DNA of 37,298 nt. It comes from a virus. Taxonomy: Duplodnaviria; Heunggongvirae; Uroviricota; Caudoviricetes. Every line of letters begins with the position of its first letter. Within the stretch, counting starts at the first letter, position 1. Below are positions 1,449 through 37,011 of this stretch, piece after piece. The notes below the pieces were generated by a model that saw only the letters and a program-made list of their open reading frames with translations, searched no databases and had not been told where the DNA came from. Location: the IMG/VR virus record IMGVR_UViG_2737471849_000005; one strand, given 5' to 3'. The translations under genes and the position numbers were made by a program.

Positions 1449-2105
1449 CTATTTAACATACTTGACTGTTAAACTTATAATTTTACCAATTATTTCAATG
1501 TCTTCTATCTTGCATTCGAAGGCTCTGTTTCCACCCTCGACGAAGATTCTTCCACCGGGTAAACGAGTAATGTCACGGATCGTTATTTCGCCATCAATAC
1601 TTATTACCCATTTACCATCACGTATATCATCAAATTCTTTATCACAAATAAATTCAGAATTGTTATCTGTGATGACAAAAGGTTTTTTAAACGTAGAGGG
1701 TAGAAATCCCTTATCAAAAATATAAAAACCGTCTTTCTGCAATGCTCCATCAGACAATAAATATTTTTCTACTTCTATAGTATTTGTATTTGCTGATGCT
1801 TGCTTTGAACCATGCCCTGTTGTTAGCCAATTAAGCGAGGTGCCCGTTTCAAGGGCGCACTGGATTACCCAATCTGCTGGAAAAATATCACGCATATAGC
1901 GCGTTGCCATAGTGCTCTTAGAAACACCTAAATGATCACAGAGAGCCTGACGAGTACCGAACCCATATGCTTCAACTAAACGTTCTATGGCTTTCTTACC
2001 GCCGCTATTGAAATCCACAAGTCCTCCAAAGAAATCCAAAATTCGTTGACAGATTCCAAAAGCGATCTTAAAGTTGAACCAGAAGTGTTCTTTTGGAGCC
2101 TTCAC
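1449..2105 (-). CDS. cI: CI-like immunity repressor (186 CI type, HTH N-domain)
   Basis: The translation contains EAYGFG...CALETG.SLNWLTTG and a C-terminal ...RLPGG...ECKIEDIEIIG that resemble phage 186 CI. It is divergent from apl. The exact start is uncertain. Confidence 0.75.
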   Translation of the reverse strand: MKAPKEHFWFNFKIAFGICQRILDFFGGLVDFNSGGKKAIERLVEAYGFGTRQALCDHLGVSKSTMATRYMRDIFPADWVIQCALETGTSLNWLTTGHGSKQASANTNTIEVEKYLLSDGALQKDGFYIFDKGFLPSTFKKPFVITDNNSEFICDKEFDDIRDGKWVISIDGEITIRDITRLPGGRIFVEGGNRAFECKIEDIEIIGKIISLTVKYVK

Positions 2106-4232: not shown

Positions 4233-5086
4233 GCACCATCCTGAAATGGGCGGGAAATAAAACCGCCATTATGTCCGAACTGAAAAAACACCTTCCTGCT
4301 GGCCCGCGACTGGTTGAACCTTTCGCGGGTTCCTGTGCTGTGATGATGGAGACGGATTACCCCAGCTATCTGGTTGCGGATATTAATCCTGATTTAATCA
4401 ACCTCTATAAAAAGGTTGCTGCTGATTGTGAATCGTTTATATCTCGCGCCAGAGTTTTATTTGAGATCGCAAACAGGGAGGTGGCTTATTACAACATAAG
4501 GCAGGAGTTTAATTACTCCACTGAAATTACTGATTTCATGAAAGCGGTATATTTCCTGTATCTCAATCGTCACGGTTACCGTGGTTTATGTCGCTATAAC
4601 AAGAGCGGGCATTTCAACATTCCCTACGGTAATTATAAAAATCCGTATTTCCCTGAAAAAGAAATTCGCGCATTTGCAGAAAAGGCCCAGCGAGCAACGT
4701 TTATCTGCGCCAGCTTTGATGAAACGCTGGCGATGTTGAAGGCGGGGGATGTGGTGTATTGCGATCCGCCGTATGACGGTAAGTTTTCCGGCTATCACAC
4801 TGATGGTTTCACTGAAGATGACCAGTATCACCTGGCATCTGTTCTTGAACATCGGTCATCAGAAGGACATCCGGTCATTGTTTCTAACAGTGACACATCC
4901 CTGATCCGTTCGCTGTATCGCAATTTTACTCATCACTACATCAAGGCAAAACGCAGCATCGGTGTGGCAGCTGGCGAGGGTAAATCAGCAACAGAAATCA
5001 TTGCTGTTTCCGGGCCGCGCTGCTGGGTGGGATTTGATTATTCGCGTGGCGTGGATAGTTCTGCCGTGTACGGAGTACGTGCATGA
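4229..5086 (+). CDS. dam: DNA adenine methyltransferase (Dam-like, GATC type)
   Basis: The translation has the N-terminal [11 protein letters not shown]...PFAGS motif and the DPPY catalytic motif (VYCDPPYDG). Its start overlaps the TraR stop and its stop overlaps the A start (ATGA). Confidence 0.85.
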
Positions 5087-7497
5087 GCCATGCCGATATG
5101 AACAACTGCTGCGGCTTTAACGAGGCTGCCGCATCGTTCTCATGGAACAGCCCGAAAAAGGCCATTAACCCTTATCTGGACCCGGCGGAAGTTGCGCCGG
5201 TTTCTGCACTTTCAAACCTGATCACTCTGTACGCTGTCGATAACGAGCAGGAACAGCTGCGCCGCGAGGCACTGAGTGATCAGGTCTGGGAGCGTTATTT
5301 CTTTAATGAATCCCGTGATCCTGTCCAGCGCGAAATGGAGCAGGATAAGCTCATTAGTCGGGCAAGGCTGGCGCATGAGCAGCAGCGTTTTAATCCAGAT
5401 ATGGTCATTCTGGCGGACGTCAATGCCCAGCCTTCCCATATCAGCAAGCCGCTGATGCAACGTATTGAATACTTCAGCAGCCTTGGCAGGCCAAAGGCTT
5501 ATTCCCGCTATTTGCGTGAGACGATTAAGCCATGTCTGGAACGGCTGGAGCATGTACGCGACAGTCAGCTATCCACTTCTTTTCGCTTTATGGCAAGCCA
5601 TGAAGGGCTGGACGGCCTGCTGATTCTGCCTGAAATGAGTCAGGATCAGGTGAAACGCCTGTCCACCCTTGTTGCTGCGCATATGAGCATGTGCCTTGAT
5701 GCAGCTTGTGGCGATTTGTATGCCACCGATGACGTTAAGCCTGAAGAAATCCGCAAGACATGGGAAAAGGTGGCAGCAGAAACCCTTCGACTGGATGTCA
5801 TACCGCCTGCGTTTGAGCAACTCCGCCGGAAAAGAAACCGCCGTAAACCCGTGCCTTATGAACTCATTCCGGGTTCGCTGGCGCGTATGTTGTGCGCCGA
5901 CTGGTGGTACCGGAAATTATGGAAGATGCGTTGCGAATGGCGGGAAGAGCAGTTGCGTGCTGTTTGCCTGGTCAGCAAAAAAGCATCTCCCTATGTCAGC
6001 TATGAAGCCGTGATGCATAAACGTGAGCAGCGCCGTAAGTCGCTGGAGTTTTTCCGTTCTCATGAACTGGTGAACGAAGACGGCGACACGCTGGACATGG
6101 AGGATGTGGTAAACGCCAGCAGCAGCAACCCTGCGCATCGCCGCAATGAGATGATGGCCTGTGTTAAAGGTCTGGAGCTTATCGCGGAAATGCGTGGTGA
6201 CTGCGCCGTTTTCTACACCATCACCTGTCCGTCACGTTTCCATTCCACGCTAAATAACGGCAGGCCCAACCCGACCTGGACAAATACGACGGTAAGACAA
6301 AGCAGTGATTATCTGGTCGGCATGTTTGCTGCATTTCGTAAGGCGATGCACAAAGCCGGATTGCGCTGGTATGGCGTGCGGGTGGCTGAGCCGCATCATG
6401 ACGGTACAGTTCACTGGCACCTGTTGTGTTTTATGCGCAAAAAAGATCGCCGCGCCATTACTGCTTTGTTGCGTAAGTTTGCCATTCGTGAAGACCGCGA
6501 GGAGCTGGGTAATAACACGGGACCACGCTTTAAGTCTGAGCTGATAAACCCGCGCAAAGGTACGCCAACAAGCTACATCGCGAAATACATCAGTAAGAAC
6601 ATTGACGGGCGTGGTCTGGCTGGCGAGATCAGCAAGGAAACGGGTAAATCCCTGCGTGATAACGCTGAATACGTTAATGCCTGGGCGTCTCTGCATCGTG
6701 TTCAGCAATTCCGCTTCTTTGGCATTCCGGGGCGTCAGGCTTACCGTGAACTGCGATTGCTGGCTGGTCAGGCGGCAAGGCAACAGGGGGACAAAAAAGC
6801 AGGTGCGCCGGTACTGGATAACCCGCGCCTTGATGCAATCCTGGCTGCTGCTGATGCTGGTTGTTTTGCCACCTACATCATGAAGCAGGGCGGCGTACTG
6901 GTTCCCCGCAAATATCACCTCATCAGAACTGCTTATGAAATCAACGAAGAACCGACCGCATATGGCGATCACGGTATTCGTATTTATGGCATCTGGTCAC
7001 CCATTGCAGAGGGCAAGATCTGCACTCATGCGGTGAAGTGGAAAATGGTTCGTAAGGCCGTTGACGTTCAGGAGGCGGCAGCCGACCAGGGCGCTTGCGC
7101 CCCTTGGACTCGTGGCAATAACTGTCCCCTTGCTGAAAATTTGAACCAACAGGAGAAAGATAAATCAGCTGATGGGGACCCCAGAACGGACTTTACCCGC
7201 ATGGATGACAAGGAGTTGCACGATTACCTGCACAGTATGAACAAAAAGGAGCGCCGGGAACTGGCTGCAAGGTTACGTCTGGTGAAACCGAAACGGCGTA
7301 GAGACTACAAACAGCGAATTACAGACCATCAACGACAGCAGCTCGTCTATGAACTGAAATCCAGAGGATTTGATGGCAGCGAGAAAGAGGTCGATTTACT
7401 CCTTCGCGGCGGCAGTATTCCGTCAGGAGCAGGCCTGCGTATCTTCTATCGGAACCAGCGTTTGCAGGAAGATGATCAGTGGCGGAACCTGTATTAA
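5083..7497 (+). CDS. A: Replication initiation protein A (rolling-circle initiator, P2 gpA / 186 A family)
   Basis: An 804-aa ORF at the position of gene A, containing an HWHLL-like motif. Confidence 0.85.
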
Positions 7498-7591
7498 TTA
7501 CGCTGGTTAACAATTCGTGCTCTTAATAATACCAGGCATATCAGGCTGATAAGCGTAAAAAAACGTTTTACATCAGTAAGATTATTATATA

Positions 7592-7607
7592 CTGTAAATA
7601 TAAACAG
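7592..7607 (+). promoter_or_regulatory. LexA (SOS) box CTGT-N8-ACAG overlapping a putative promoter
   Basis: The sequence tactgtaaatataaacagtg at 7590-7609 closely matches the LexA consensus TACTGTATATATATACAGTA. It lies about 45 bp upstream of the ORF at 7650, with a TATACT -10-like hexamer adjacent. Confidence 0.65.
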
Positions 7608-7649
7608 TGGTTATGTATACAGTATTGCTTTGGTGTCATAGGAGGAAAG

Positions 7650-7838
7650 ATGCAGGACTATTTTTTGGAGTCTTTGAAGCTCCAGCGCATTGATTTTTTT
7701 CTTAAGCTTGTAGCGGCTAGTGAGTGTAGTGATGAAGAGAAGGGGCTGGCTCTGCAGTGGGTTTCTGAACTGACAGATGAACTCATGGCAAAAATCAGAA
7801 GCCACGAATACAACCGCTCAATGGATGTCATCAGCTGA
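7650..7838 (+). CDS. Small SOS-controlled protein (62 aa), possibly the N-terminal part of a Tum-like antirepressor
   Basis: An AGGAGG RBS precedes the ATG. It is the first ORF downstream of the LexA box. Confidence 0.5.
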   Translation: MQDYFLESLKLQRIDFFLKLVAASECSDEEKGLALQWVSELTDELMAKIRSHEYNRSMDVIS

Positions 7839-7848
7839 GGTGACTTTT

Positions 7849-8082
7849 ATGCGCATTGAAATAATGATCGATAAAGAGCAGAAGATTAGCCAGTCTACCC
7901 TGGACGCCCTTGAATCCGAGCTTTACCGCAATCTGCGCCCCCTGTATCCCAAAACGGTAATCCGTATCCGTAAAGGTAGCTCTAACGGTGTGGAACTGAC
8001 CGGACTGCAACTGGACGAAGAAAGAAAACAAGTGATGAAAATTATGCAGAAGGTGTGGGAAGACGACAGCTGGCTGCATTGA
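7849..8082 (+). CDS. DinI-like protein (77 aa)
   Basis: The translation MRIEIMIDKEQ...LDALESELYRNL...KIMQKVWEDDSWLH follows the DinI pattern (MRIEV..I.K...ALE.EL.RR...I..I.QE.WE..D.W). Confidence 0.75.
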   Translation: MRIEIMIDKEQKISQSTLDALESELYRNLRPLYPKTVIRIRKGSSNGVELTGLQLDEERKQVMKIMQKVWEDDSWLH

Positions 8083-8195
8083 TTTTGTCAATAGACGCTT
8101 GTTTTTACTAATCAAAAAGGGTTACATATGAGTGAGAGGCGATGTCAATCAGATATCGCCTTGTTTTTTGTCAAGAAAAGAATAATAGGCTAAAA

Positions 8196-8873
8196 ATGAA
8201 AATTAATAATGTAGCGTTACCAATATCTCTTGCTGTAATCCTAACTGGTTGCGTGCCACATGCTTCTAACCGAAATATCACTGCTATTGAAGTGGTGAAG
8301 CCTGCTATTGGGCAAAGTGCTACCGCCTACATGGGCGATCCCATTATCACATCTGCTACTGGATTTAAAACGGACGTACTAGAACTTGGTGCGGCTAATG
8401 GTGCATTGTCTTCTATCGCTGCTGGTACATATTGCAGTGAGGGGAATGGAATTTACCGCAATTATCATAACCCTCAAGCTGTTGCGTTAAAAAATCTCTA
8501 TGGGCAAATCGGTAACTATGTTGATTATGTTAGTTACGATGCTGCAAAAAATGAGATATCACCGCCAAATGGTACTTCTTATACTGCATCAGAAATTTCT
8601 ATCAAACGTGTTCCTGATGGGCTGTGTCGAGTTAGTAACTCATTGGTTAAGACTATCGAATACAATGGAAATGCAGGCGGTGTAATGAAGTTCACCTATC
8701 GTGAATTTGCAAACGATATGGCTCGTGCAGCATTTACAACAGATTTTTCTGTAGATTCTAAGGGAAGTGACGTTATCGCTTACAAAGGTGCCAAGTTCAA
8801 AGTGAACAAGGCTGATAACTCGTCTATTTCTTATACAATTATTTCTGGCTTTGACAAGGCTGTCACGTTCTAG
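8196..8873 (+). CDS. Predicted lipoprotein (226 aa), unknown function
   Basis: The N-terminus MKINNVALPISLAVILTGC carries a lipobox (LTGC). The gene is AT-rich, and the protein is Gly/Ser/Thr-rich and ends in Phe. Confidence 0.6.
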   Translation: MKINNVALPISLAVILTGCVPHASNRNITAIEVVKPAIGQSATAYMGDPIITSATGFKTDVLELGAANGALSSIAAGTYCSEGNGIYRNYHNPQAVALKNLYGQIGNYVDYVSYDAAKNEISPPNGTSYTASEISIKRVPDGLCRVSNSLVKTIEYNGNAGGVMKFTYREFANDMARAAFTTDFSVDSKGSDVIAYKGAKFKVNKADNSSISYTIISGFDKAVTF

Positions 8874-8976
8874 GTTTCACGCTTACTGAGTATGTTACGA
8901 TTTTGCACATTCTGCATAAACGCGCATGTCTATGCTGCATGAGATCGCATGATCGTTTGAGGATCTTTTGTGTTAA

Positions 8977-9002
8977 GGCCCGCCAGTTCTGGCGGGCTTT
9001 TG
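8977..9002 (+). terminator. Rho-independent terminator downstream of the lipoprotein gene
   Basis: A GC-rich hairpin (gcccgcc...ggcgggc) is followed by TTTT. Confidence 0.5.
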
Positions 9003-9046
9003 CGTAGATCATGCAGGTGCATGAAAACCACTACATAAAGCGGGCA

Positions 9047-9065
9047 GGCGTGGCGGGGATACGAG
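9047..9065. other. cos-like sequence (candidate cohesive-end site)
   Basis: The sequence GGCGTGGCGGGGATACGAG resembles the P2/186 19-nt cohesive end as I recall it (GGCG(A/T)GGCGGGGAAAGCA-). About 13 of 19 positions match. Confidence 0.35.
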
Positions 9066-9198
9066 CGCGCGTTATGACAAATAGATGATTAGCCTGATTT
9101 ATTCACAGCTGTATAAATGATCACCTTGTAATTAGGTAAGTAATGTCTTCTATTATCATTGATTTGATAGGATTAATCTGTTTTTTGAGGATTAGAGG

Positions 9199-11535
9199 AT
9201 GATTGAAGAGGTAGTTATTGACAAAGTAGGCTCATATAATGGCCCTACTCAGCTTTTACATGGGCTTTCTAAATTTAACTATTTATATGGAGCTAATGGT
9301 GCAGGTAAAACAACTATAAGTAAAATTATTAATGACCCTGAACAATATCCAACATGTCCGATTAAATGGAAAAATAATATATCTTTAATAAGCTACGTAT
9401 ATAATAAAGATTTTGTTGAAAGAAATTTTAGTCAAGATAAAATTAAAGGTGTATTTACCCTTGGTAGCGATCTTAAGGAGGATGAAGAGAAACTAATATC
9501 TCTTGAAGAAGAAAAAAATAAGCTAATAGAATCTATTATAGCAAAGGAAAAGCTAATAGATGGTGGTGATAATATATTAGGCGTTGTTAAACAAATCGAA
9601 GACCATGAAAAATCTTTTAAAGATTCATGTTGGAAGCAAAAAGTAAAACATGATAATGTGTTCTCAAAGGCTTTTGAGGGATTAAGGAATAGTAGTGAAA
9701 AATTTAAAGCTAGAGTGTTGGCTGAGTATGAAAATAACACATCAGAAGTTTGCTCAATAGCAGAGCTAATTGAGAAAGCAAAAATTGTTTTTTCTACTGA
9801 ATTGACATCACATGTATCAATTACAATTCCATCCTTCAATGGGATAGATGATATTTTGAGTAGGGAGATTTGGAGTGAGCGTATTCTAGGGAAAAAAGAC
9901 GTTAGTGTTTCAGACTTAATTACAATGCTCAATAACAGTGATTGGGTTAAGGAAGGTTTAACATATTTCAGTAAATCTAATCCCAAGTGCCCATTCTGCC
10001 AGCAGGATGTAAATGATAATATATTTGATAATCTATCATCATATTTTGATAAAACATATGAGTTAAAAAAAAGAGAAATCGATGCATTGGTTTTACAATA
10101 TGAACATCAACTTAATAATATCTTGCAGGCGATAGATGATATAAGGGCGATTAAATCTCCATTCATAAATTATGAAGTATTTGAGGATAAGGCTAAGATA
10201 GTATTATCTGAATTAAACAAGAATTTTGAATTGGCAAAAAATAAACGCAATTTTTTAAGTGAATCAGTTCATTTTAGTGACTTAAGTGAAGTTGTTGATG
10301 ATTTTATTTCTTTTTTGAATGATTCAAATCTATTGATAGATAATAATAACAAAATACACAGTAATAGAAAGGTAGAGGCTAGTAATCTTTCTAATCAGAT
10401 ATGGGCATATATCGTAAAGGTGGAGTTAAAGTCTGAAATAACTTCTTACCGTAGCGAATCTGATAAATTTAATAGGAAGTTACAAGGACTTAAATCTGGG
10501 TTAGAGGAAGACAAAAAGAAGTTAATGTTAAATGCTTCGGCTATTGAGGCAATTGAGTCTAATAAAACCAGTACTCTTCCAACTATTACAAAAATTAACA
10601 AGATTCTGGATTCTTATGGCTTCAAAAATTTTTACTTAAAACCCTCCGAAGATAAAAAGCATTATATGATAGTGAGAGATAGTGGAGATAATGCTCGTAC
10701 AACCCTTAGCGAGGGAGAAAAGACATTTATCACTTTTTTGTATTTTTATAGCCTTGTTAGAGGGAGTGATAATGCATCAGGTGTTTTAGATGATCGTGTT
10801 GTAGTATTTGATGATCCAATTTCAAGTTTAGATAGTGATATTCTGTTTATTGTAAGTTCGTTGATTAAAGATTTAATGGAGGATGTTCGTAAGGATGAAG
10901 GAAATATTAAGCAAATTATATTCCTTACACATAATATTTATTTTCATAAAGAGTTGACTTTTAATACTAAAAGATCCGGTAATCAAGCAATGAAAGAGGA
11001 GACTTTTTGGATTGTAAGGAAAAAAGGGAAGGTCTCATATCTTGAAAAGTGCGAATCAAACCCAATAAAAACGTCTTATGATTTGCTCTGGTGCGAATTG
11101 AGAAGAACAGATATTAATAATAATACTATACAAAATACAATGCGAAGGATTTTGGAGAATTACTTTAAGATATTAGGTGGGATGGATATTAGGAAGCTTG
11201 AATGTCATTTTTATGGTGATGAAAAAATCATATTTAAATCTTTAGTGTCATGGATTAATGATGGTTCTCATTTTGCAGGTGATGATCTTTATATGAATTT
11301 AGATACGGAGTCTGTGCAAAAATATTTAATTGTTTTTCAGAAGATATTTGAGTGTAGTGAGCATACTGCCCATTACAAAATGATGATGGGTGAGTTTTAT
11401 AGACCGTTAAATGAGTCACTTCATCTACAAGATGAGTTTGATATTGATGATAGTGCGAATGATGAGTATGCTTCGTCAAAAATTGAGATAGAAGATGGAA
11501 TAAACACATCTCTACATAGCAATACATATTTGTAA
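9199..11535 (+). CDS. ABC/Rad50-like ATPase (778 aa), RloC/PrrC-like; candidate anti-phage defence protein
   Basis: The translation has Walker A GANGAGKTT, ABC-signature-like LSEGEK, Walker B/D-loop VVVFDDPISSLD and H-loop FLTHN. A long Lys/Glu-rich insert contains CPFC. The C-terminal region has RRILE (R-x3-E) and RKLECH (R-x4-H). The gene is very AT-rich. Confidence 0.7.
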   Translation: MIEEVVIDKVGSYNGPTQLLHGLSKFNYLYGANGAGKTTISKIINDPEQYPTCPIKWKNNISLISYVYNKDFVERNFSQDKIKGVFTLGSDLKEDEEKLISLEEEKNKLIESIIAKEKLIDGGDNILGVVKQIEDHEKSFKDSCWKQKVKHDNVFSKAFEGLRNSSEKFKARVLAEYENNTSEVCSIAELIEKAKIVFSTELTSHVSITIPSFNGIDDILSREIWSERILGKKDVSVSDLITMLNNSDWVKEGLTYFSKSNPKCPFCQQDVNDNIFDNLSSYFDKTYELKKREIDALVLQYEHQLNNILQAIDDIRAIKSPFINYEVFEDKAKIVLSELNKNFELAKNKRNFLSESVHFSDLSEVVDDFISFLNDSNLLIDNNNKIHSNRKVEASNLSNQIWAYIVKVELKSEITSYRSESDKFNRKLQGLKSGLEEDKKKLMLNASAIEAIESNKTSTLPTITKINKILDSYGFKNFYLKPSEDKKHYMIVRDSGDNARTTLSEGEKTFITFLYFYSLVRGSDNASGVLDDRVVVFDDPISSLDSDILFIVSSLIKDLMEDVRKDEGNIKQIIFLTHNIYFHKELTFNTKRSGNQAMKEETFWIVRKKGKVSYLEKCESNPIKTSYDLLWCELRRTDINNNTIQNTMRRILENYFKILGGMDIRKLECHFYGDEKIIFKSLVSWINDGSHFAGDDLYMNLDTESVQKYLIVFQKIFECSEHTAHYKMMMGEFYRPLNESLHLQDEFDIDDSANDEYASSKIEIEDGINTSLHSNTYL

Positions 11536-11584
11536 TTTTATTGCAATTGCCAGTAGCAACAATACGGTACTGGCAACTAATATT

Positions 11585-12616
11585 TTAGTTAAGCTCATAT
11601 GGAGAAAATTCTATAAGTTTCTCCCCGAGCCATGCGTTTATTTCCATAAATCGTTTTTGCAAAGGAATTAATTCATTTATCACAAAAACCTTACTAGCCT
11701 TCTCCACATCCCCAAACCCCCCAACATTATTAGGCATTATCCCCATCATTTGCGGCGGCACACGGTGTGCCGCCATCATGTCGTCCCGGCTCACGTTCTT
11801 GATATTCAGAAACTCATCCTTCGCCGCGACTTCTGACAACGGGATAATCTGAAGCCCGTCCTTTTTGCCGTTAGGAGAGTACATAAACAGGTTGCGGAAG
11901 TTGCCTGGCCCTTTGGCGCTTTTCATTGCGTTGCGGAGGTTGTTCACATCTTCTTGGTTCTGTGCGGCATCGGTCATGTACATGATGAAACCTGCATGGC
12001 TGCCGTTGATGTAATACTTACGGCGGAACAGTGTGGCGGACTCGTTGAGCAGGGCTGACGGGATGGCAGAGAGATAACCTGGCAGGCCGTAGATCTCCTG
12101 GTTGATGTCCGGTTCCATCAGATGAAAAATGCTGCCTTTCGTGAACTGATACGGCTGGGCTGTCATACCGTCTTGCACAAACCAGTAGGTATCCAGGTCT
12201 AATCCGCGTCGGGTGTATTTTGCCAAAGCTGGCTCAAGGGCGATAACTTCACCAAAGCGGTTCGTGCGTTTCTCCAGGTAGGCGTTACCAAATACCAGAT
12301 AGTCCTGCACAAAACGCGAAAAAGCCTGCTGGCTGAGCAGCGGATGAGGGATATAGGTACTGGTCAGAATGTTGCACTTTACTGCAATCGGGGAACTGTG
12401 ATGCACGGCGGCGCGGAAGGTGCGCGCCAGTCCATTAAAGCTGACGGGCGGCTCATACCAGCGATCCATCTGTACGCATTCCACATAGTCCAGCAGTTCG
12501 CGGCGGTCCAGCACGGGGATGGGATCACCAAAGCTGAAAGCCTCAGCCGTTGGGCCGTTGCTTGGTTTTGTGTCGTGACCAACTGTTACCTGCTTGGTGT
12601 TTTTACGTTTGCTCAT
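11585..12616 (-). CDS. Q: Portal protein (P2 gpQ family)
   Basis: A 343-aa ORF whose size and position match P2 Q. Its start overlaps the upstream gene's stop (ATGA). Confidence 0.88.
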   Translation of the reverse strand: MSKRKNTKQVTVGHDTKPSNGPTAEAFSFGDPIPVLDRRELLDYVECVQMDRWYEPPVSFNGLARTFRAAVHHSSPIAVKCNILTSTYIPHPLLSQQAFSRFVQDYLVFGNAYLEKRTNRFGEVIALEPALAKYTRRGLDLDTYWFVQDGMTAQPYQFTKGSIFHLMEPDINQEIYGLPGYLSAIPSALLNESATLFRRKYYINGSHAGFIMYMTDAAQNQEDVNNLRNAMKSAKGPGNFRNLFMYSPNGKKDGLQIIPLSEVAAKDEFLNIKNVSRDDMMAAHRVPPQMMGIMPNNVGGFGDVEKASKVFVINELIPLQKRFMEINAWLGEKLIEFSPYELN

Positions 12617-23532: not shown

Positions 23533-25085
23533 GCACAAAATTTTATACCCTGCTGACGGATATTGGCGCGGCGAAACTTGCCAGCGCCGCCGCGCTCGGT
23601 GTGCCGCTAAAAATTACCCATATGGCGGTCGGCGATGGCGGCGGAGTATTGCCAACGCCAGACTCAAAGCAGACTGCACTGGTAAATGAGAAACGCCGGG
23701 CTGCGCTGAATATGCTCTATATCGACCCGCAGAACAGCAGCCAGATTATTGCCGAACAGGTGATCCCTGAAAACGAGGGCGGTTGGTGGATACGTGAAGT
23801 GGGCTTGTTTGATGAGTCCGGGGCATTGATTGCCGTGGGCAACTGCCCGGAAAGCTATAAGCCGCAACTGGCTGAAGGTAGCGGGCGCACTCAGACCGTG
23901 CGCATGGTGCTGATTACCAGCAGCACGGACAATATCACCCTGAAAATCGACCCTGCCGTAGTGCTGGCAACCCGCAAGTATGTGGATGACAAGGCACTGG
24001 AGCTGAAGGTGTACGCGGATGATCAGATGGCAAAACATCTTGCCGCACCGGACCCGCATTCACAGTATGCACCCAAAGAAAGTCCGACGTTTACCGGGAC
24101 ACCCAAAGCGCCAACGCCAGCGGCGGGGAATAACACCACGCAGATTGCGACCACCGCGTTTGTTCAGGCGGCTCTGACGGCTCTTATTAATGGTGCGCCA
24201 GCCACGTTGGACACGCTGAAAGAAATAGCCGCAGCCATTAACAATGATCCGAAATTCAGTACCACCATTAACAATGCGCTGGCACTGAAAGCGCCGCTGT
24301 CGAGTCCGGCACTCACCGGAACGCCAACCGCACCTACTGCGGCACAGTCGGTCAACAATACACAGATTGCCACCACGGCATTTGTGAAATCGGCGATTGC
24401 GGCAATGGTGGGTTCTGCACCTGCGGCACTGGATACACTGAACGAACTGGCGGCAGCGCTGGGGAATGACCCGAACTTTGCCACGACAATGCTTAATGCG
24501 CTGGCAGGTAAACAACCGCTGGACAATACGCTGACTAATTTGAGTGGAAAGGATGTAGCTGGTCTTCTCACATACCTTGGTTTGGGAGAAGGTTCAGCAT
24601 TACCTGTTGGTGCACCTGTTCCGTGGCCTTCAGAGACACCTCCAACAGGCTGGCTGAAATGCAACGGAGCAGCTTTTTCTGCTGAAGAATACCCGGAACT
24701 GGCAAAGGCTTACCCGACAAATAAATTGCCTGATTTACGTGGTGAGTTTATTCGTGGCTGGGATGATTCTAGAGGGATTGATACGGGGCGTTCATTGCTA
24801 AGTGGTCAGGCTGCAACATTTATTCGTACAGCTTTGCAGGATTATTACGGTTACGATCTGAATACTAATGTCAAAGTAGGTATCGCTTTTGCTACTGCTG
24901 ATTCTGTTATAACTGTTGGAAACCCAGCTAATCCTAAAGCAGGAAATAATAGCGATTATGTTCCTGCATCAGCAGATAACTCCATAACGGGTACTCAAAG
25001 GACAGCGGAGGATAATTTTACCGGGGCATGGATATCAATGCGCCCTCGTAACCTTTCATTTAATTACATCGTGAGGGCTGCATAA
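23529..25085 (+). CDS. H: Tail fibre protein H; C-terminal third lies inside the invertible segment
   Basis: The N-terminal sequence MSTKFYTLLTDIGAAKLA fits P2 H. The protein has internal repeats, and a recombination site lies within the gene at 24565-24590. Confidence 0.85.
   Translation: MSTKFYTLLTDIGAAKLASAAALGVPLKITHMAVGDGGGVLPTPDSKQTALVNEKRRAALNMLYIDPQNSSQIIAEQVIPENEGGWWIREVGLFDESGALIAVGNCPESYKPQLAEGSGRTQTVRMVLITSSTDNITLKIDPAVVLATRKYVDDKALELKVYADDQMAKHLAAPDPHSQYAPKESPTFTGTPKAPTPAAGNNTTQIATTAFVQAALTALINGAPATLDTLKEIAAAINNDPKFSTTINNALALKAPLSSPALTGTPTAPTAAQSVNNTQIATTAFVKSAIAAMVGSAPAALDTLNELAAALGNDPNFATTMLNALAGKQPLDNTLTNLSGKDVAGLLTYLGLGEGSALPVGAPVPWPSETPPTGWLKCNGAAFSAEEYPELAKAYPTNKLPDLRGEFIRGWDDSRGIDTGRSLLSGQAATFIRTALQDYYGYDLNTNVKVGIAFATADSVITVGNPANPKAGNNSDYVPASADNSITGTQRTAEDNFTGAWISMRPRNLSFNYIVRAA
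24565..24590. repeat. Gin/Pin-type crossover site (left), inside H
   Basis: The sequence TTCTCACATACCTTGGTTTGGGAGAA is an imperfect 26-bp palindrome. Its right half is the reverse complement of the left half of the site at 26465-26490. Confidence 0.55.
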
Positions 25086-25687
25086 TGGATAATGCCGTAT
25101 TAAATAGCGAGTTTATTGCCACGAAGGCGGGGGATATTACTGTCTATAATTATAATGGTGAAACACGAGAATATATTTCCACATCAACTGAATATCTTGC
25201 TGTTGGTGTCGGTATTCCGGCATGTTCCTGTTTAGATGCACCAGGAACATATAAAGCTGGTTATGCCATCTGCCGCTCTGCGGATTTAAACTCATGGGAA
25301 TATGTGCCAGACCATCGCGGAGAAATCGTCTATAACACCGAAACGGGAGACGCCAAAGAAATCACAACTCCGGGTGATTACCCCGAAAATACAACCACTA
25401 TCGCCCCATTAACGCCATACGATAAATGGGATGGTGAGAAATGGGTGACCGATACTGAGGCACAGCATCACGCCGCAGTAGACGCGGCAGAAGCACAGCG
25501 TCAGTCACTGATTGATACTGCAATGGCTTCCATTAGTCTGATTCAACTGAAATTACAGGCTGGGCGGAAGCTGATGCAGGCAGAGACCTCCCGACTTAAC
25601 ACTGTGCTGGATTACATTGACGCGGTGACGGCAACAGATACCAGCACCGCGCCGGATGTCATCTGGCCTGAACTGCCGGAGGAGTAG
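25085..25687 (+). CDS. G: Tail fibre assembly chaperone G (Tfa)
   Basis: Position and the conserved C-terminal ...DYIDAV.ATDTSTAPDVIWPELPE tail. Confidence 0.8.
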   Translation: MDNAVLNSEFIATKAGDITVYNYNGETREYISTSTEYLAVGVGIPACSCLDAPGTYKAGYAICRSADLNSWEYVPDHRGEIVYNTETGDAKEITTPGDYPENTTTIAPLTPYDKWDGEKWVTDTEAQHHAAVDAAEAQRQSLIDTAMASISLIQLKLQAGRKLMQAETSRLNTVLDYIDAVTATDTSTAPDVIWPELPEE

Positions 25688-26099
25688 GCCATTCAATATC
25701 TGGCGCACTGGAAGTATCGACCAGCTCCAGTGCGTCCAGATAATCCAGCCACAAATTATATTGCGCCAGTTCCTCACCTTTCAGACGACCAATAGCCGCT
25801 TTACCAGCCCATTGTTTACTGTTCATATAATCGTTGGCCTGATTAATCAATTGCTGCTTTTTAAGTTCGGCTGCAGCAATCTGTTCCTCATGTGTTGGTG
25901 GTGGAATTTCAGACCATGCAGGAAAACCATTTTCTCCAGCGATACGGATTTTTCCTTTCGGCGGTAATCCGGAAAACTCAATATACACTTGCTCATCAAC
26001 TTCAACAGCATCATCTGGCCATGAGTCAGCTTGCGTGTAATCCTCTTTCATCTCCAAGGGATAGAAAGAGTTTGTAGTCGCGGAATATATGTAATTCAT
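25659..26099 (-). CDS. Alternative tail fibre assembly chaperone (Tfa') on the inverted strand
   Basis: Its C-terminal ...DYLDALELVDTSSAPDIEWPTPP tail is homologous to the G C-terminus. It is convergent with G. Confidence 0.7.
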   Translation of the reverse strand: MNYIYSATTNSFYPLEMKEDYTQADSWPDDAVEVDEQVYIEFSGLPPKGKIRIAGENGFPAWSEIPPPTHEEQIAAAELKKQQLINQANDYMNSKQWAGKAAIGRLKGEELAQYNLWLDYLDALELVDTSSAPDIEWPTPPAVQAR

Positions 26100-26125
26100 T
26101 TTTCACTCCATAAAGTTAAAAGAAA

Positions 26126-26518
26126 TTAACACCCTAATGCGAAAAATGAAGCACCGATACCGGGTACGCCTGCTCTGGAAATAAATTTCACCGGGTCCTG
26201 GTTATAACCGGCACAAGCTATATAGCCAACATTTGCACTGCCGGGAGTGTAATCCTGAGTCGCAAATACCCGCAGACATCTATTCGGAAATGCAATCGGA
26301 AAATAGGTTACTGTGTCCTGAGACGTCAGCGGAACATCAATTGGCCCCCATTGAATAATTAAACCGGATGGCAATTTTTGATATCCAGGAACTGAAGCAG
26401 AAAGCATAAAACTACCCATATCAGGTATCTGATTCGCCCCTGTCCCTACATTTCTTTTAGCCGCTTCTCCCAAACCAACGTTTAAGAAAATGCAGCGATT
26501 ACGGCTAACTGGCATCAT
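26126..26518 (-). CDS. Alternative tail-fibre C-terminal segment (Sv'-like), promoterless until inversion
   Basis: The minus-strand frame runs through the crossover site and encodes ..VGLGE.. there, matching ..LGLGE.. in H at the left site. Confidence 0.55.
26465..26490. repeat. Gin/Pin-type crossover site (right)
   Basis: The sequence TTCTCCCAAACCAACGTTTAAGAAAA fits the pattern TTnTCnnAAACC..GTTT..GA.AA of gix/cix-type sites, in inverted orientation to the site in H. Confidence 0.55.
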
Positions 26519-26545
26519 CCCCTATTTTTATTCAGGGAGATGATC

Positions 26546-27112
26546 ATGCTTATTGGCTATGTACGCGTGTCAACAAATGACCAGAACACCGATTTGCAAC
26601 GTAATGCGCTGAACTGCGCGGGATGTGAGCGGATTTTTGAGGACAAAATCAGTGGCACTAAGTCCGACAGACCGGGGCTTAAAAAACTGCTCAGGACACT
26701 ATTGGCAGGAGACACGCTGGTTGTCTGGAAGCTGGACAGGTTGGGGCGCAGTATGCGGCATCTTGTTACGCTGATAGAAGAGTTGCGCCAGCGTGGTGTG
26801 AATTTCCGAAGCCTGACTGACAGTATTGATACCAGTACCCCAATGGGCCGTTTCTTTTTTCATGTCATGGGTGCCCTGGCTGAAATGGAACGCGAACTGA
26901 TAGTTGAACGTACCCGGGCAGGGCTGGCTGCAGCTCGTGCTAAAGGCAGAGTAGGTGGACGCCGTCCTAAGTTGACCACTGAACAGTGGGCACAGATTGG
27001 ACGTTTACTCGAGGCCGGAGAATCAAGACAGCGTATTGCACTGATTTTTGATGTAGGCGTTTCTACCATTTATCGAAAATTTCCGGCAAATAAGAGCAAT
27101 AAATCTCCCTGA
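26546..27112 (+). CDS. Serine recombinase DNA invertase (Gin/Pin/Cin/Hin family)
   Basis: The translation MLIGYVRVSTNDQNTDLQRNAL...VVWKLDRLGRSM...FRSLTDSIDTS.PMGRFFFHVMGALAEMEREL is almost collinear with Mu Gin as I recall it. A GGGAGA RBS precedes the start. Confidence 0.9.
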   Translation: MLIGYVRVSTNDQNTDLQRNALNCAGCERIFEDKISGTKSDRPGLKKLLRTLLAGDTLVVWKLDRLGRSMRHLVTLIEELRQRGVNFRSLTDSIDTSTPMGRFFFHVMGALAEMERELIVERTRAGLAAARAKGRVGGRRPKLTTEQWAQIGRLLEAGESRQRIALIFDVGVSTIYRKFPANKSNKSP

Positions 27113-34678: not shown

Positions 34679-36364
34679 TTATCCTAATCCTGGCCATACC
34701 ATGACGATGATTGTCCCTGCCAGCGTCAGCAGGACGTTGGCGATTGCATAGGTGCCCGCATAGCCCAGCGCCGGGATGTTACTGCGAGCTGTATCACTGA
34801 TGATCTCCATTGCCGGCGCGCAGGTACGTGCGCCCATCATTGCGCCGAACAACAGTGCGCGGTTCATTCGCAATACATAAGCACCGAACAAGAAACAGAT
34901 AACCACGGGCACCAGACTGACAATCAATCCGGCAATCAACATCTGACCGCCAATCGCGCCCAGGCCGTTATTAATACCGCTACCGGCGCTCAGACCAACG
35001 CCTGCCATAAACACCATCAAGCCGAACTCTTTCACCATGCTTAATGCACCTTGCGGAATGTAACCGAAGGTCGGGTGGTTAGCACGCATAAAGCCCAGCA
35101 TAATTCCGGCGAATAACAACCCGGCAGCGTTCCCCATGCCGAAACTGAATGTGCTGAACTGGAAGGTGATCATCCCGATCATCAGCCCAATAACAAAGAA
35201 GGCGCAAAATGCCAGCAGGTCAGTGACCTGGCTGTGAATCGAGATAAAGCCGATGCGATCGGCGATGGTTTTTACGCGACGGGCATCACCGCTGACTTGT
35301 AAAACGTCACCTTTGTTAAGCACGACGTTGTCATCTATCGGCATCTCAATCTGGCTACGAATGACGCGGTTAAGGAAGCAACCGTGATCGGTCAACTTCA
35401 GTTGTGCGAGACGTTTACCTACAGCGTTATGGTTTTTAACGACCACTTCTTCAGTGACGATACGCATGTCGAGAAGGTCACGATCGAAAACTTCTTTACC
35501 GTTACGGAAGCTGGGATCGAGTCGGGCATGGGCGTCGGGATAGCCTACCAACGCTATTTCATCGCCCATTTGTAGCACGGCATCACCGTCTGGATTTGCC
35601 AGAATCCCGTTACGTCGAATACGTTCAATGTAGCAGCCGGTTTGTCGATAAATACCCAGTTCACGCAGATTTTTGCCGTCGGTCCAGGCCACCAGCTCCG
35701 GGCCGACGCGATAGGCGCGGATCACCGGTAAATAAACCTTACGGTTGGCATCAGTGTCCAGGCCACGTTCGCGGGCGATTTGCTGGGCGCTGGTCTGTAA
35801 GTCCTGATGCTGCAATTTCGGCAAGTAACGCGCACCAACAATCAAACTCACCAGACCGATTAAATAGGTTAAGGCATACCCGAGGCTCAGATTATCCAGT
35901 GCCAGTGAGAGCTGCCTGCTTTCCATGCCGGAATGACGCAGTGTATCGCCAGCACCGACCAGAACCGGTGTCGACGTCATAGAGCCTGCTAACATACCGG
36001 CCGTCAGGCCAATATCCCAGCCAAACAGCTTACCTAACCCTAAGGCGATCACCAGCGCACTGCCAACCATCACCAGTGCTAACATTAGGTAATTTTTCCC
36101 ATCGCGAAAAAAAATGGAAAAAAAGTTCGGTCCGGCTTCGACCCCGACGCAGAAAATAAACAGCATAAAGCCAAGATTAAGCGCATCGGTGTTAATGCTG
36201 AAATGTTGTTGGCCTAATAACAGCGATACGACTAAAACGCCAATGGAATTACCCAGTTGGATCGAACCAAGTCGTAACTTTCCGAGACATAGCCCAAGCG
36301 CGAGGACCACAAATAATAACAGAATGTAATTCCCATTTAACAATTCGGCGACGTTTATATTCAC
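34679..36364 (-). CDS. ybjL: Putative AAE-family transport protein YbjL (host)
   Basis: A 561-aa polytopic membrane protein whose N-terminal [29 protein letters not shown] matches E. coli YbjL as I recall it. Confidence 0.85.
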
Positions 36365-36633
36365 GGAGGCTAACTTCTTGTTTACTAGTAAGCTGTTGAA
36401 AGAAATGGTAATTTACGATAATGTTTTTTACCAGAATTCAGGGCGCAGATTCATTCAGCGCACCTAAACGATAGTAAAGTAACAATATATTTTACTAGTG
36501 TAATCACATTAGGTATCAACGGCTATATGAATTGCGTTGGCCTATATTAGCATGGAATGCGAAGCGGCTTTATCTTACTGAACGCCACACTGGCGAAAAA
36601 TGTGTTCGATAGACGCAGTGTCAGGAGGAACGA

Positions 36634-37011
36634 GTGAAACATAAACAACGTTGGGCGGGGGCAATCTGCTGTTTTGTCCTCTTCATTGTGGTGTGCCTTT
36701 TTCTGGCGACGCACATGAAAGGCGCTTTTCGGGCTGCCGGGCATCCTGAAATCGGCTTGCTATTTTTCATTCTTCCTGGAGCAGTGGCCAGCTTCTTTTC
36801 ACAGCGTAGAGAAGTCCTGAAACCTCTGTTTGGCGCAATGCTGGCGGCACCCTGTTCGATGCTCATTATGCGGCTGTTTTTTTCACCGACGCGCTCATTC
36901 TGGCAAGAGCTGGCATGGTTACTAAGCGCGGTGTTCTGGTGTGCGCTGGGGGCACTGTGTTTCTTATTTATCAGTAGTTTGTTTAAACCACAGCACAGAA
37001 AAAATCAGTAA
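36634..37011 (+). CDS. ybjM: Inner membrane protein YbjM (host)
   Basis: A 125-aa membrane protein between ybjL and grxA, as in the E. coli chromosome. Confidence 0.75.
   Translation: MKHKQRWAGAICCFVLFIVVCLFLATHMKGAFRAAGHPEIGLLFFILPGAVASFFSQRREVLKPLFGAMLAAPCSMLIMRLFFSPTRSFWQELAWLLSAVFWCALGALCFLFISSLFKPQHRKNQ

Follow-up and report, generated by a model that had tools for sequence, protein, structure and literature searches.

A predicted outer-membrane lipoprotein encoded by an independent cargo cassette in the cos-proximal hotspot of a P2-like prophage: a candidate envelope exclusion factor

What might an exported protein do at a prophage locus that is known for anti-phage systems, and does its gene act alone or with its neighbor? 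The question is raised by a lipoprotein gene in IMG/VR virus record IMGVR_UViG_2737471849_000005, a stretch of 37,298 nucleotides (here called the window, which always means the whole stretch analyzed) that represents a complete Fels-2/186-type P2-like prophage. A preliminary description of this DNA had placed the gene at 8142-8873 and had presented it as an AT-rich moron with its own terminator, a possible superinfection exclusion factor that could work alone or together with an ATPase encoded downstream. Judged by sequence comparison, the lipoprotein gene is a self-contained, 843-bp, AT-rich cargo cassette in the first of two hotspot slots, and it recombines freely with whatever defense system occupies the second slot, the AAA_13 ATPase included.

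The limits of the cassette were read from blastn comparisons with sister prophages. Homology ended at the stop codon of a DinI-like gene (8080) and resumed at 8924, which places exact breakpoints at 8081 and 8923, and the cassette was present or absent between prophages that are otherwise 98 to 99% identical. It sits between the replication gene gpA (5083-7497) and the portal gene Q (11585-12616) of this P2-like phage and adjoins cos. The GC content of the cassette is 0.396 and the third-position GC content (GC3) of the lipoprotein coding sequence is 0.314, compared with 0.529 and 0.568, respectively, for gpA. Other prophages with the same flanks carried different contents in this slot (slot A): 83 bp without a gene, DarT-DarG (DarTG), a ComF-family protein plus a hypothetical protein, or a DUF2971 protein. 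The cassette was found in 50 of 5426 complete Escherichia coli genomes (50 of the ~1282 that carry the backbone), always as a single copy and always adjoining the DinI-like gene. The low GC content, the presence/absence pattern, and the exact breakpoints all agree with the earlier assignment as an AT-rich moron. The terminator assigned to the gene, on the other hand, is not its own: the intrinsic terminator hairpin at ~8975-9003 (-22.3 kcal/mol) lies inside the 148-bp block at 8924-9071, which is common to prophages with other slot A cargo; a complete transcription unit confined to the cassette is accordingly not borne out. The features of the hotspot and of the operon upstream are as follows.

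5083-7497: replication gene A (gpA), from the gene call.
7592-7607, plus strand: LexA (SOS) box CTGTAAATATAAACAG, a perfect CTGT-N8-ACAG match.
7650-7838, plus strand: 62-aa open reading frame (ORF) of the SOS operon; phrog_698 (unknown function); RefSeq WP_001154434/WP_001154431, "hypothetical protein."
7849-8082, plus strand: DinI-like gene (Tum-type module); Pfam DinI, E 1.2e-22; phrog_189; RefSeq WP_001217575.
8081-8923, plus strand: lipoprotein cassette, variable slot A, 843 bp, delimited by blastn breakpoints and composition.
8136-8169, plus strand: hairpin (8136-8162) followed by a U-run, terminator- or attenuator-like, between the DinI-like gene and the lipoprotein start.
8196-8873, plus strand: lipoprotein coding sequence, 225 aa, identical to WP_000700647.1; signal peptide at 8196-8249, predicted lipid-modified Cys codon at 8250-8252, then the mature all-beta domain.
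8924-9071, plus strand: conserved backbone block with the terminator hairpin and the cos region.
9047-9065, plus strand: cos cohesive-end sequence GGCGTGGCGGGGATACGAG, from the alignment to the P2 right end/cos.
9072-11560, plus strand: variable slot B with the AAA_13 ATPase gene (9199-11535); breakpoint at 9071; GC content 0.306.
11585-12616, minus strand: portal gene Q, which bounds the hotspot on the right, from the gene call and RefSeq annotation.

The extent of the gene required one correction. An ORF at 8142-8873 on the plus strand is indeed present in the ORF list of the window, but translation almost certainly starts at the ATG at 8196 and yields 225 aa. This is the length given by RefSeq (WP_000700647.1, in several E. 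coli genomes), the phrog_1353 profile aligned from residue 1 of this product (E 3e-105), and the homologs begin at the same Met. With a start at 8142, the lipobox Cys would fall at position 37, outside the 15-to-35 range (it is residue 19 when counted from 8196), and the ATG codon itself would be buried in a -16.6 kcal/mol hairpin (8136-8162) followed by a U-run. The upstream start was rejected on all five grounds.

Comparison of two E. coli alleles argues that the gene is real and under strong purifying selection. They differ at 42 nucleotides, with 35 synonymous and 7 nonsynonymous differences, and the resulting dN/dS of 0.053 indicates that the gene is expressed and selected as a protein. 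The gene is already public, both as Fels-2 STM2726 (99% identical) and as WP_000700647.1, and is annotated as "hypothetical"; the protein is 98 to 100% identical at the amino acid level across E. coli, Salmonella, and Klebsiella prophages from clinical isolates. Literature searches via WP_000700647, EcHS_A0921, and phrog_1353 returned nothing on the lipoprotein, and STM2726 was found in a single microarray paper only.

By every sequence criterion tested, the product is a lipoprotein. The rule applied (PROSITE type, PS51257 type) calls for a positively charged n-region, an uncharged h-region, and [LVI][ASTVI][GAS]C with the Cys at residue 15 to 35; the N terminus (MKINNVALPISLAVILTGC) has K2, an uncharged h-region, and L-T-G-C ending at Cys19. 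The LAVILTGC lipobox read from the DNA in the preliminary description was therefore correctly identified, and the family retains it: all 22 homologs of 36 to 88% identity have G18 and C19, and a lipobox with the Cys at 15 to 35 is found in 220 of 248 full-length family members. Only one other ORF among the 57 of at least 100 aa in the window has a similar lipoprotein N terminus. In Enterobacterales, Asp at position +2 is the inner-membrane retention signal of the Lol pathway, and lipoproteins are otherwise sent to the outer membrane. No family member has Asp at +2; here, +2 is Val and +3 is Pro, and default Lol sorting to the outer membrane is therefore predicted. We envision that signal peptidase II would cleave the 225-aa prolipoprotein and leave a lipid anchor at Cys19, that Lol sorting would deliver the anchored protein, with its Val at +2, to the outer membrane, and that a tether of ~10 residues would then present an all-beta domain of 195 residues.

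The mature part has 206 residues, of which 25% are Gly, Ser, or Thr and a further 12% are Ala. It contains no hydrophobic segment, the signal peptide being the only one in the protein. All close relatives (22 homologs) share C80 and C144, and the number of Cys residues in the mature part is even in 205 of 220 family members, a pattern that fits disulfide bonding in an exported protein. An AlphaFold2 (AF2) model built from the 22-sequence alignment is all beta, with 17 strands and no helices (pLDDT 80.3, pTM 0.60); residues 1 to 27 are disordered in it. Both the composition and the model bear out the beta-like, Gly/Ser/Thr-rich mature domain that had been proposed from the sequence, and the protein does end in Phe. 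The Phe is not a family-wide trait, being the last residue of only 34 of 248 members; the conserved feature is an Asn-Phe motif located 0 to 3 residues from the end. Conservation is uneven along the protein, at 0.60 in the C-terminal half (residues 146 to 221) and 0.31 to 0.37 in the N-terminal half, a roughly twofold difference.

We turn to the relationship between the lipoprotein and the ATPase. The proposed cos-like site and the downstream ATPase ORF are both present: the cos sequence GGCGTGGCGGGGATACGAG aligns to the P2 right end/cos (GGCGAGGCGGGGAAAGCAC) with 37 of 45 identities (E 9e-8), and lipoprotein-bearing phages such as Fels-2 and Klebsiella 4LV2017 remain homologous as far as 9071, six bases beyond cos, and no further. 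Because the ATPase gene lies between cos and Q, the P2 hotspot must be viewed as two slots with cos dividing them. Once the DNA is packaged, the right arm consequently ends with the lipoprotein gene and the left arm begins with the ATPase gene. The ATPase itself has 778 aa and matches Pfam AAA_13 (E 5.8e-164) and, over its full length, the PADLOC single-gene candidate PDC-S06 (E 1.5e-266). A weaker match to PrrC (E 2.5e-11) in its C-terminal third (residues 459 to 703) hints at an anticodon-nuclease-like effector.

If the two proteins formed a two-gene system, in which the lipoprotein would be the envelope sensor or effector partner of the ATPase, their genes should travel together. They are adjacent and on the same strand in the window and in E. 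coli WL297, which is the only 1 of the 5426 E. coli genomes to carry both, against ~0.9 expected by chance (an expectation that rests on the ~1282 genomes carrying the backbone). The ATPase block was found in 21 to 23 of these genomes, so that the ATPase is absent from 49 of the 50 lipoprotein carriers and the lipoprotein from ~22 of the 23 ATPase carriers. The viral data gave the same answer. Among 58 IMG/VR viral contigs that encode the lipoprotein or a close relative, 53 have the backbone and cos downstream; slot B was readable in 50 of the lipoprotein loci and had 26 different contents, with the ATPase in 1. The two genes also lie in different slots, with the conserved terminator and cos between them and at opposite ends of the virion DNA, and PADLOC treats the ATPase as a single-gene candidate. 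This distribution effectively refutes a two-gene system, which we regard as hardly credible, and the co-occurrence check proposed in the preliminary description thus came out at chance level. Of the two modes of action that had been offered, action alone fits and action with the ATPase does not: chance-level co-occurrence and the 26 slot B contents point to a one-gene unit. In practical terms, this negative result is useful, as the lipoprotein and the PDC-S06 ATPase should be treated separately and not as a pair.

The partners found in slot B were diverse. Fels-2 has STM2723.1, E. coli HS a 463-aa hypothetical protein, ATCC 8739 three hypothetical proteins, and other strains a STAS-like pair or a DUF4145 protein. 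When 10 slot B partner proteins were scanned, 8 matched defense or candidate models of PADLOC (AbiU, bSEFIR, AbiLi, PDC-M03A, PDC-S49, PDC-M55C/HEC-05, NsnA/PD-T4-2_A, and PD-Lambda-3_B). Slot B is empty (359 bp, no ORF) in two contigs (L076 and L092) whose lipoprotein allele is 88% identical, which makes the lipoprotein the sole hotspot cargo there.

How large is the family to which this protein belongs? A word-indexed search detected 27 close relatives, all "hypothetical," while an exhaustive profile search detected 2434 cluster representatives (50% identity) at an E value of ≤1e-3 and 1256 at ≤1e-10; the named members come from Gammaproteobacteria and Bacteroidota. The only PHROGs match was phrog_1353, annotated as "unknown function." Pfam and NCBIfam have no family for the lipoprotein, PADLOC-DB v2 gave no family at an E value of ≤0.1, and a Pfam scan of 41 diverse relatives produced nothing meaningful. 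A sequence-profile search of the PDB returned nothing below an E value of 0.7, only noise at the level of the signal peptide, and a fold search with the AF2 model against the PDB and BFVD (solved and predicted viral structures) found no match. The lipoprotein is outside every family in Pfam, annotated PHROGs, NCBIfam, and PADLOC, and neither the PDB nor BFVD contains a structural relative of it.

Most of the family contexts sampled are mobile elements. In Acinetobacter Vieuvirus phages and in Moraxella phage Mcat28, relatives occupy accessory sites of the tail module, and another lies between the lysis and tail genes of a Chryseobacterium prophage. Others adjoin genes for a tyrosine integrase and a helix-turn-helix (HTH) regulator, sit in serine-recombinase islands of Klebsiella and Citrobacter next to putAbiC or an OLD-family nuclease, share a variable region with an OLD-family nuclease and a group II intron, or are located on a mobilizable plasmid; one is found beside a CS1-type fimbrial operon. 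Two homologs with 37 to 38% identity (L038 and L039) are carried by E. coli IncFIB nonmobilizable replicons of 95 to 108 kb, between a DnaB-like helicase gene and parA, and these replicons look to us like phage-plasmids of the SSU5/pHCM2 type. Similar lipoprotein matches were also seen on plasmids of Shigella, Citrobacter, and Klebsiella grimontii. Taken together, the contexts identify a large uncharacterized lipoprotein family that, by its genomic distribution, has been captured repeatedly by temperate phages, likely phage-plasmids, and recombinase islands.

The fold and the distribution bear on one possible function, that of a periplasmic immunity protein or inhibitor directed against an envelope toxin (a bacteriocin, a peptidoglycan- or lipid-targeting effector of a type VI secretion system [T6SS], or a lysozyme), encoded by an orphan immunity gene on mobile elements. 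Lysozyme inhibitors and T6SS immunity proteins are typically small, exported, disulfide-containing, all-beta lipoproteins, and the product resembles them in being a small all-beta lipoprotein; its mobile, patchy distribution and variable N-terminal half would also suit such a role. However, no cognate toxin gene was adjacent in the ~15 contexts examined, and the fold searches matched neither MliC, PliC, or Ivy nor any known immunity protein. We therefore consider this function very improbable.

The reading that we tentatively favor, and to which we give somewhat less than an even chance, is that the lipoprotein acts as a lysogenic-conversion factor that excludes heterologous phages at the envelope. 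Three observations lead to it: the predicted address in the outer membrane or periplasm; the nature of the other occupants of the slot, which are defense systems, in a hotspot where many anti-phage systems are proven; and the recurrent acquisition of family members by temperate phages. The gpA-gpQ cos-proximal hotspot of P2 holds anti-phage systems (Rousset et al. 2022, PMC9122126), and WP_000700647 appears as "hypothetical" in Table S5A of that study among the P2 hotspot loci; it is not mentioned among the systems that were cloned and tested (PMC9122126). Exclusion could be achieved by masking an outer-membrane protein receptor or by blocking genome entry in the periplasm, with the variable N-terminal half perhaps determining target specificity and the conserved C-terminal half serving as a common scaffold.

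Several points weigh against exclusion. The protein matches nothing in PADLOC, Pfam, or NCBIfam, and no fold match in the PDB or BFVD points to a mechanism. The P2 hotspot carries non-defense cargo as well, such as partition systems and the cdt toxin (PMC9122126), and a 2026 NAR survey of P2/P4 elements predicted by machine learning that only 15 to 32% of the unknown P2 hotspot proteins are antiviral. Some relatives are ordinary chromosomal genes, among them the Vibrio campbellii member, whose chromosomal context is stable, and the ancestral role of the family may be in housekeeping envelope biology. A promoter scan detected no convincing sigma-70 promoter upstream of 8196, the one match overlapping the start codon. 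Finally, observations on a prophage with the identical lipoprotein speak to self-exclusion. This protein is encoded by DuoHS, the only P2-like prophage of E. coli HS. DuoHS virions build up on the surface of capsule-less DuoHS lysogens (PMC13622650); at high phage input such lysogens are cleared, being lysed from without, while plaques are abolished by immunity (PMC13622650). The DuoHS receptor is the O9 O-antigen (PMC13622650). Adsorption of DuoHS to lysogens that carry the identical gene makes self-exclusion at the level of adsorption unlikely; a block after adsorption, or action against other phages, would be compatible with these data. In the DuoHS studies, the marker occupied a different position, namely the other accessory locus between gpH and gpFI.

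The non-defense cargo of the hotspot also raises the possibility that the lipoprotein benefits the prophage through the success of its host, as a fitness or virulence conversion factor comparable to lambda Bor/Iss or TraT that would confer serum or complement resistance, adhesion, tolerance of envelope stress, or resistance to antimicrobial peptides. The near identity of the protein across prophages of E. coli, Salmonella, and Klebsiella clinical isolates would be expected of such a factor, and so would the relative at the fimbrial operon, the relatives on plasmids, the virulence cargo for which the hotspot is known, such as cdt (PMC9122126), and the chromosomal members in free-living Vibrio. 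We nevertheless think it unlikely. The Pfam scan revealed no similarity to Bor or TraT, all other occupants seen in slot A and most of those in slot B are defense or defense-candidate systems, and the family extends to prophages of environmental Bacteroidota, where mammalian virulence makes little sense.

How the gene is expressed bears on when envelope exclusion, or any other function, could be exerted. The LexA box at 7592-7607 is the only CTGT-N8-ACAG match in the 37-kb window and lies 43 bp upstream of the ORF at 7650; its position ahead of the operon of the 62-aa ORF and the DinI-like gene marks the prophage as SOS inducible, in the manner of 186, Fels-2, and DuoHS. The tum genes of DuoHS and of the 186 type are LexA controlled, and tum of DuoHS is needed for induction (PMC12055606). 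Between the DinI-like stop codon and the lipoprotein start, within the cassette, is the hairpin with its U-run (8136-8169). A 94%-identical allele (L021) retains the 8136-8162 stem through a compensatory C:G-to-U:A change, which suggests that the stem is a terminator or an attenuator, with an insulator or a 5' stabilizer as other candidate roles; an Rfam scan of 7400-9300 detected no RNA family. A microarray experiment with the Fels-2 carrier Salmonella TA100 showed induction of the predicted operon STM2726-STM2727-STM2728 by the mutagen MX: all three genes were significantly upregulated, by 2.6- to 14.8-fold (PMC2225428). We propose that the lipoprotein gene is probably driven, at least in part, by read-through from the LexA-controlled operon of the small ORF and the DinI-like gene past the attenuator-like hairpin, in which case its expression would rise upon SOS induction.

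Such timing would be expected if the lipoprotein protected the phage's own progeny in the induction phase, as a T5 Llp-like or "anti-Kronos" factor: it would be made during the SOS response and alter the envelope of the induced cell, so that released virions or superinfecting phages would not be lost to a cell that is already dying and to its debris. The gene is directly downstream of the LexA-controlled operon and has no clear promoter of its own, and Fels-2 STM2726 is induced with STM2727 and STM2728 by DNA damage (PMC2225428). However, the terminator-like hairpin separates the SOS operon from the gene, and the microarray does not assign the 14.8-fold and 2.6-fold increases to individual genes of the operon (PMC2225428). 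Moreover, in mitomycin C-induced DuoHS outbreaks, progeny pile up on capsule-less sister lysogens despite the gene (PMC13622650), and the O-antigen that DuoHS uses as its receptor is unlikely to be masked by a lipoprotein. We regard progeny protection as improbable.

Envelope exclusion by phage-encoded lipoproteins has precedents, and each differs from the present protein. T5 Llp and Cor (phi80/N15/HK022) are phage-encoded outer-membrane lipoproteins that inactivate FhuA. Like them, the lipoprotein is encoded by one phage-borne gene and combines a lipobox signal peptide with a predicted outer-membrane address and a proposed role in envelope exclusion. Llp and Cor have roughly 60 to 80 residues, whereas the mature part of this protein has 206, and it matches only phrog_1353, with no Pfam family and no structure in the PDB or BFVD. 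TraT, the outer-membrane lipoprotein of conjugative plasmids that mediates surface exclusion and serum resistance, is similar in size, is likewise borne by mobile elements, and acts alone at the cell surface, as the lipoprotein may do; however, neither the lipoprotein (at an E value of ≤0.1) nor any of the 41 relatives has a Pfam TraT match, and the predicted all-beta fold has no PDB counterpart. Bor/Iss of lambda, which confers serum resistance, is also an outer-membrane lipoprotein encoded by a prophage accessory gene, but it occupies the late region of lambdoid phages and not a defense hotspot, and the present protein has no Pfam match. Bor is under 100 aa.

The remaining comparisons concern location and timing. 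P2 old, tin, and other P2 hotspot cargo share with the lipoprotein gene the gpA-gpQ address next to cos, the AT richness, and the exchange between related prophages, but Old, Tin, DarTG, and retrons are cytoplasmic nucleic acid-directed or abortive-infection systems, whereas the lipoprotein is predicted to be exported. Ltp of Streptococcus phage TP-J34 is a prophage lipoprotein that acts after adsorption by blocking DNA injection, a mode that would fit the adsorption of DuoHS to its lysogens; Ltp comes from a Gram-positive host and is helical, and no homology to the lipoprotein was detected. A spanin or other lysis role was considered separately and rejected, given the distance of the gene from the lysis cassette and a product ~3 times the size of an o-spanin.

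Knowledge of prophage hotspots is mostly of cytoplasmic defense, and exported single-gene cargo is routinely left as "hypothetical." The gene in question is carried in identical or near-identical form by Fels-2, by the DuoHS prophage of the widely used strain E. coli HS, and by prophages of epidemic Klebsiella clones. Should envelope exclusion prove correct, the very few exclusion lipoproteins on record for Gram-negative bacteria (Cor, Llp, and TraT) would gain a new family, with a bearing on host-range prediction for phage therapy in Klebsiella, E. coli, and Salmonella; should it prove false, the gene would be one more uncharacterized lysogenic-conversion gene. It is conceivable, although we hold it to be doubtful, that exclusion extends to the whole family. 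In that case, phrog_1353 and its ~2400 relatives (at 50% identity) would be an unrecognized, phylum-spanning class of envelope-level anti-phage proteins with no Pfam model or PDB-matched fold. At least five unrelated types of temperate phages would carry this first, extracytoplasmic layer, stacked in P2-like phages beside interchangeable cytoplasmic systems, and the receptor or injection machinery to be blocked would depend on the variable N-terminal half.

Outside the hotspot, the window contains the regulatory region and an invertible segment. The left part includes the following feature.

1449-2105, minus strand: CI repressor of the 186 type (Phage_CI_repr and Phage_CI_C).

CII (CP76) is also encoded within 1449-2941, and the AT-rich stretch that contains both genes adjoins the integrase gene. 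An invertible tail-fiber host-range segment at 25085-27112 coincides with a dip in GC content; it contains two tail-fiber assembly genes in opposite orientation and an alternative fiber C terminus (Gp53-like_C), together with a Hin/Cin-type resolvase at 26540-27112. The right end of the prophage is flanked by the host genes ybjL (an Asp-Al_Ex/TrkA_C permease) and ybjM (34679-37011), indicating integration into an Enterobacteriaceae chromosome. A lipoprotein homolog of 80% identity (L025) is also located a few kilobases from an Asp-Al_Ex gene.

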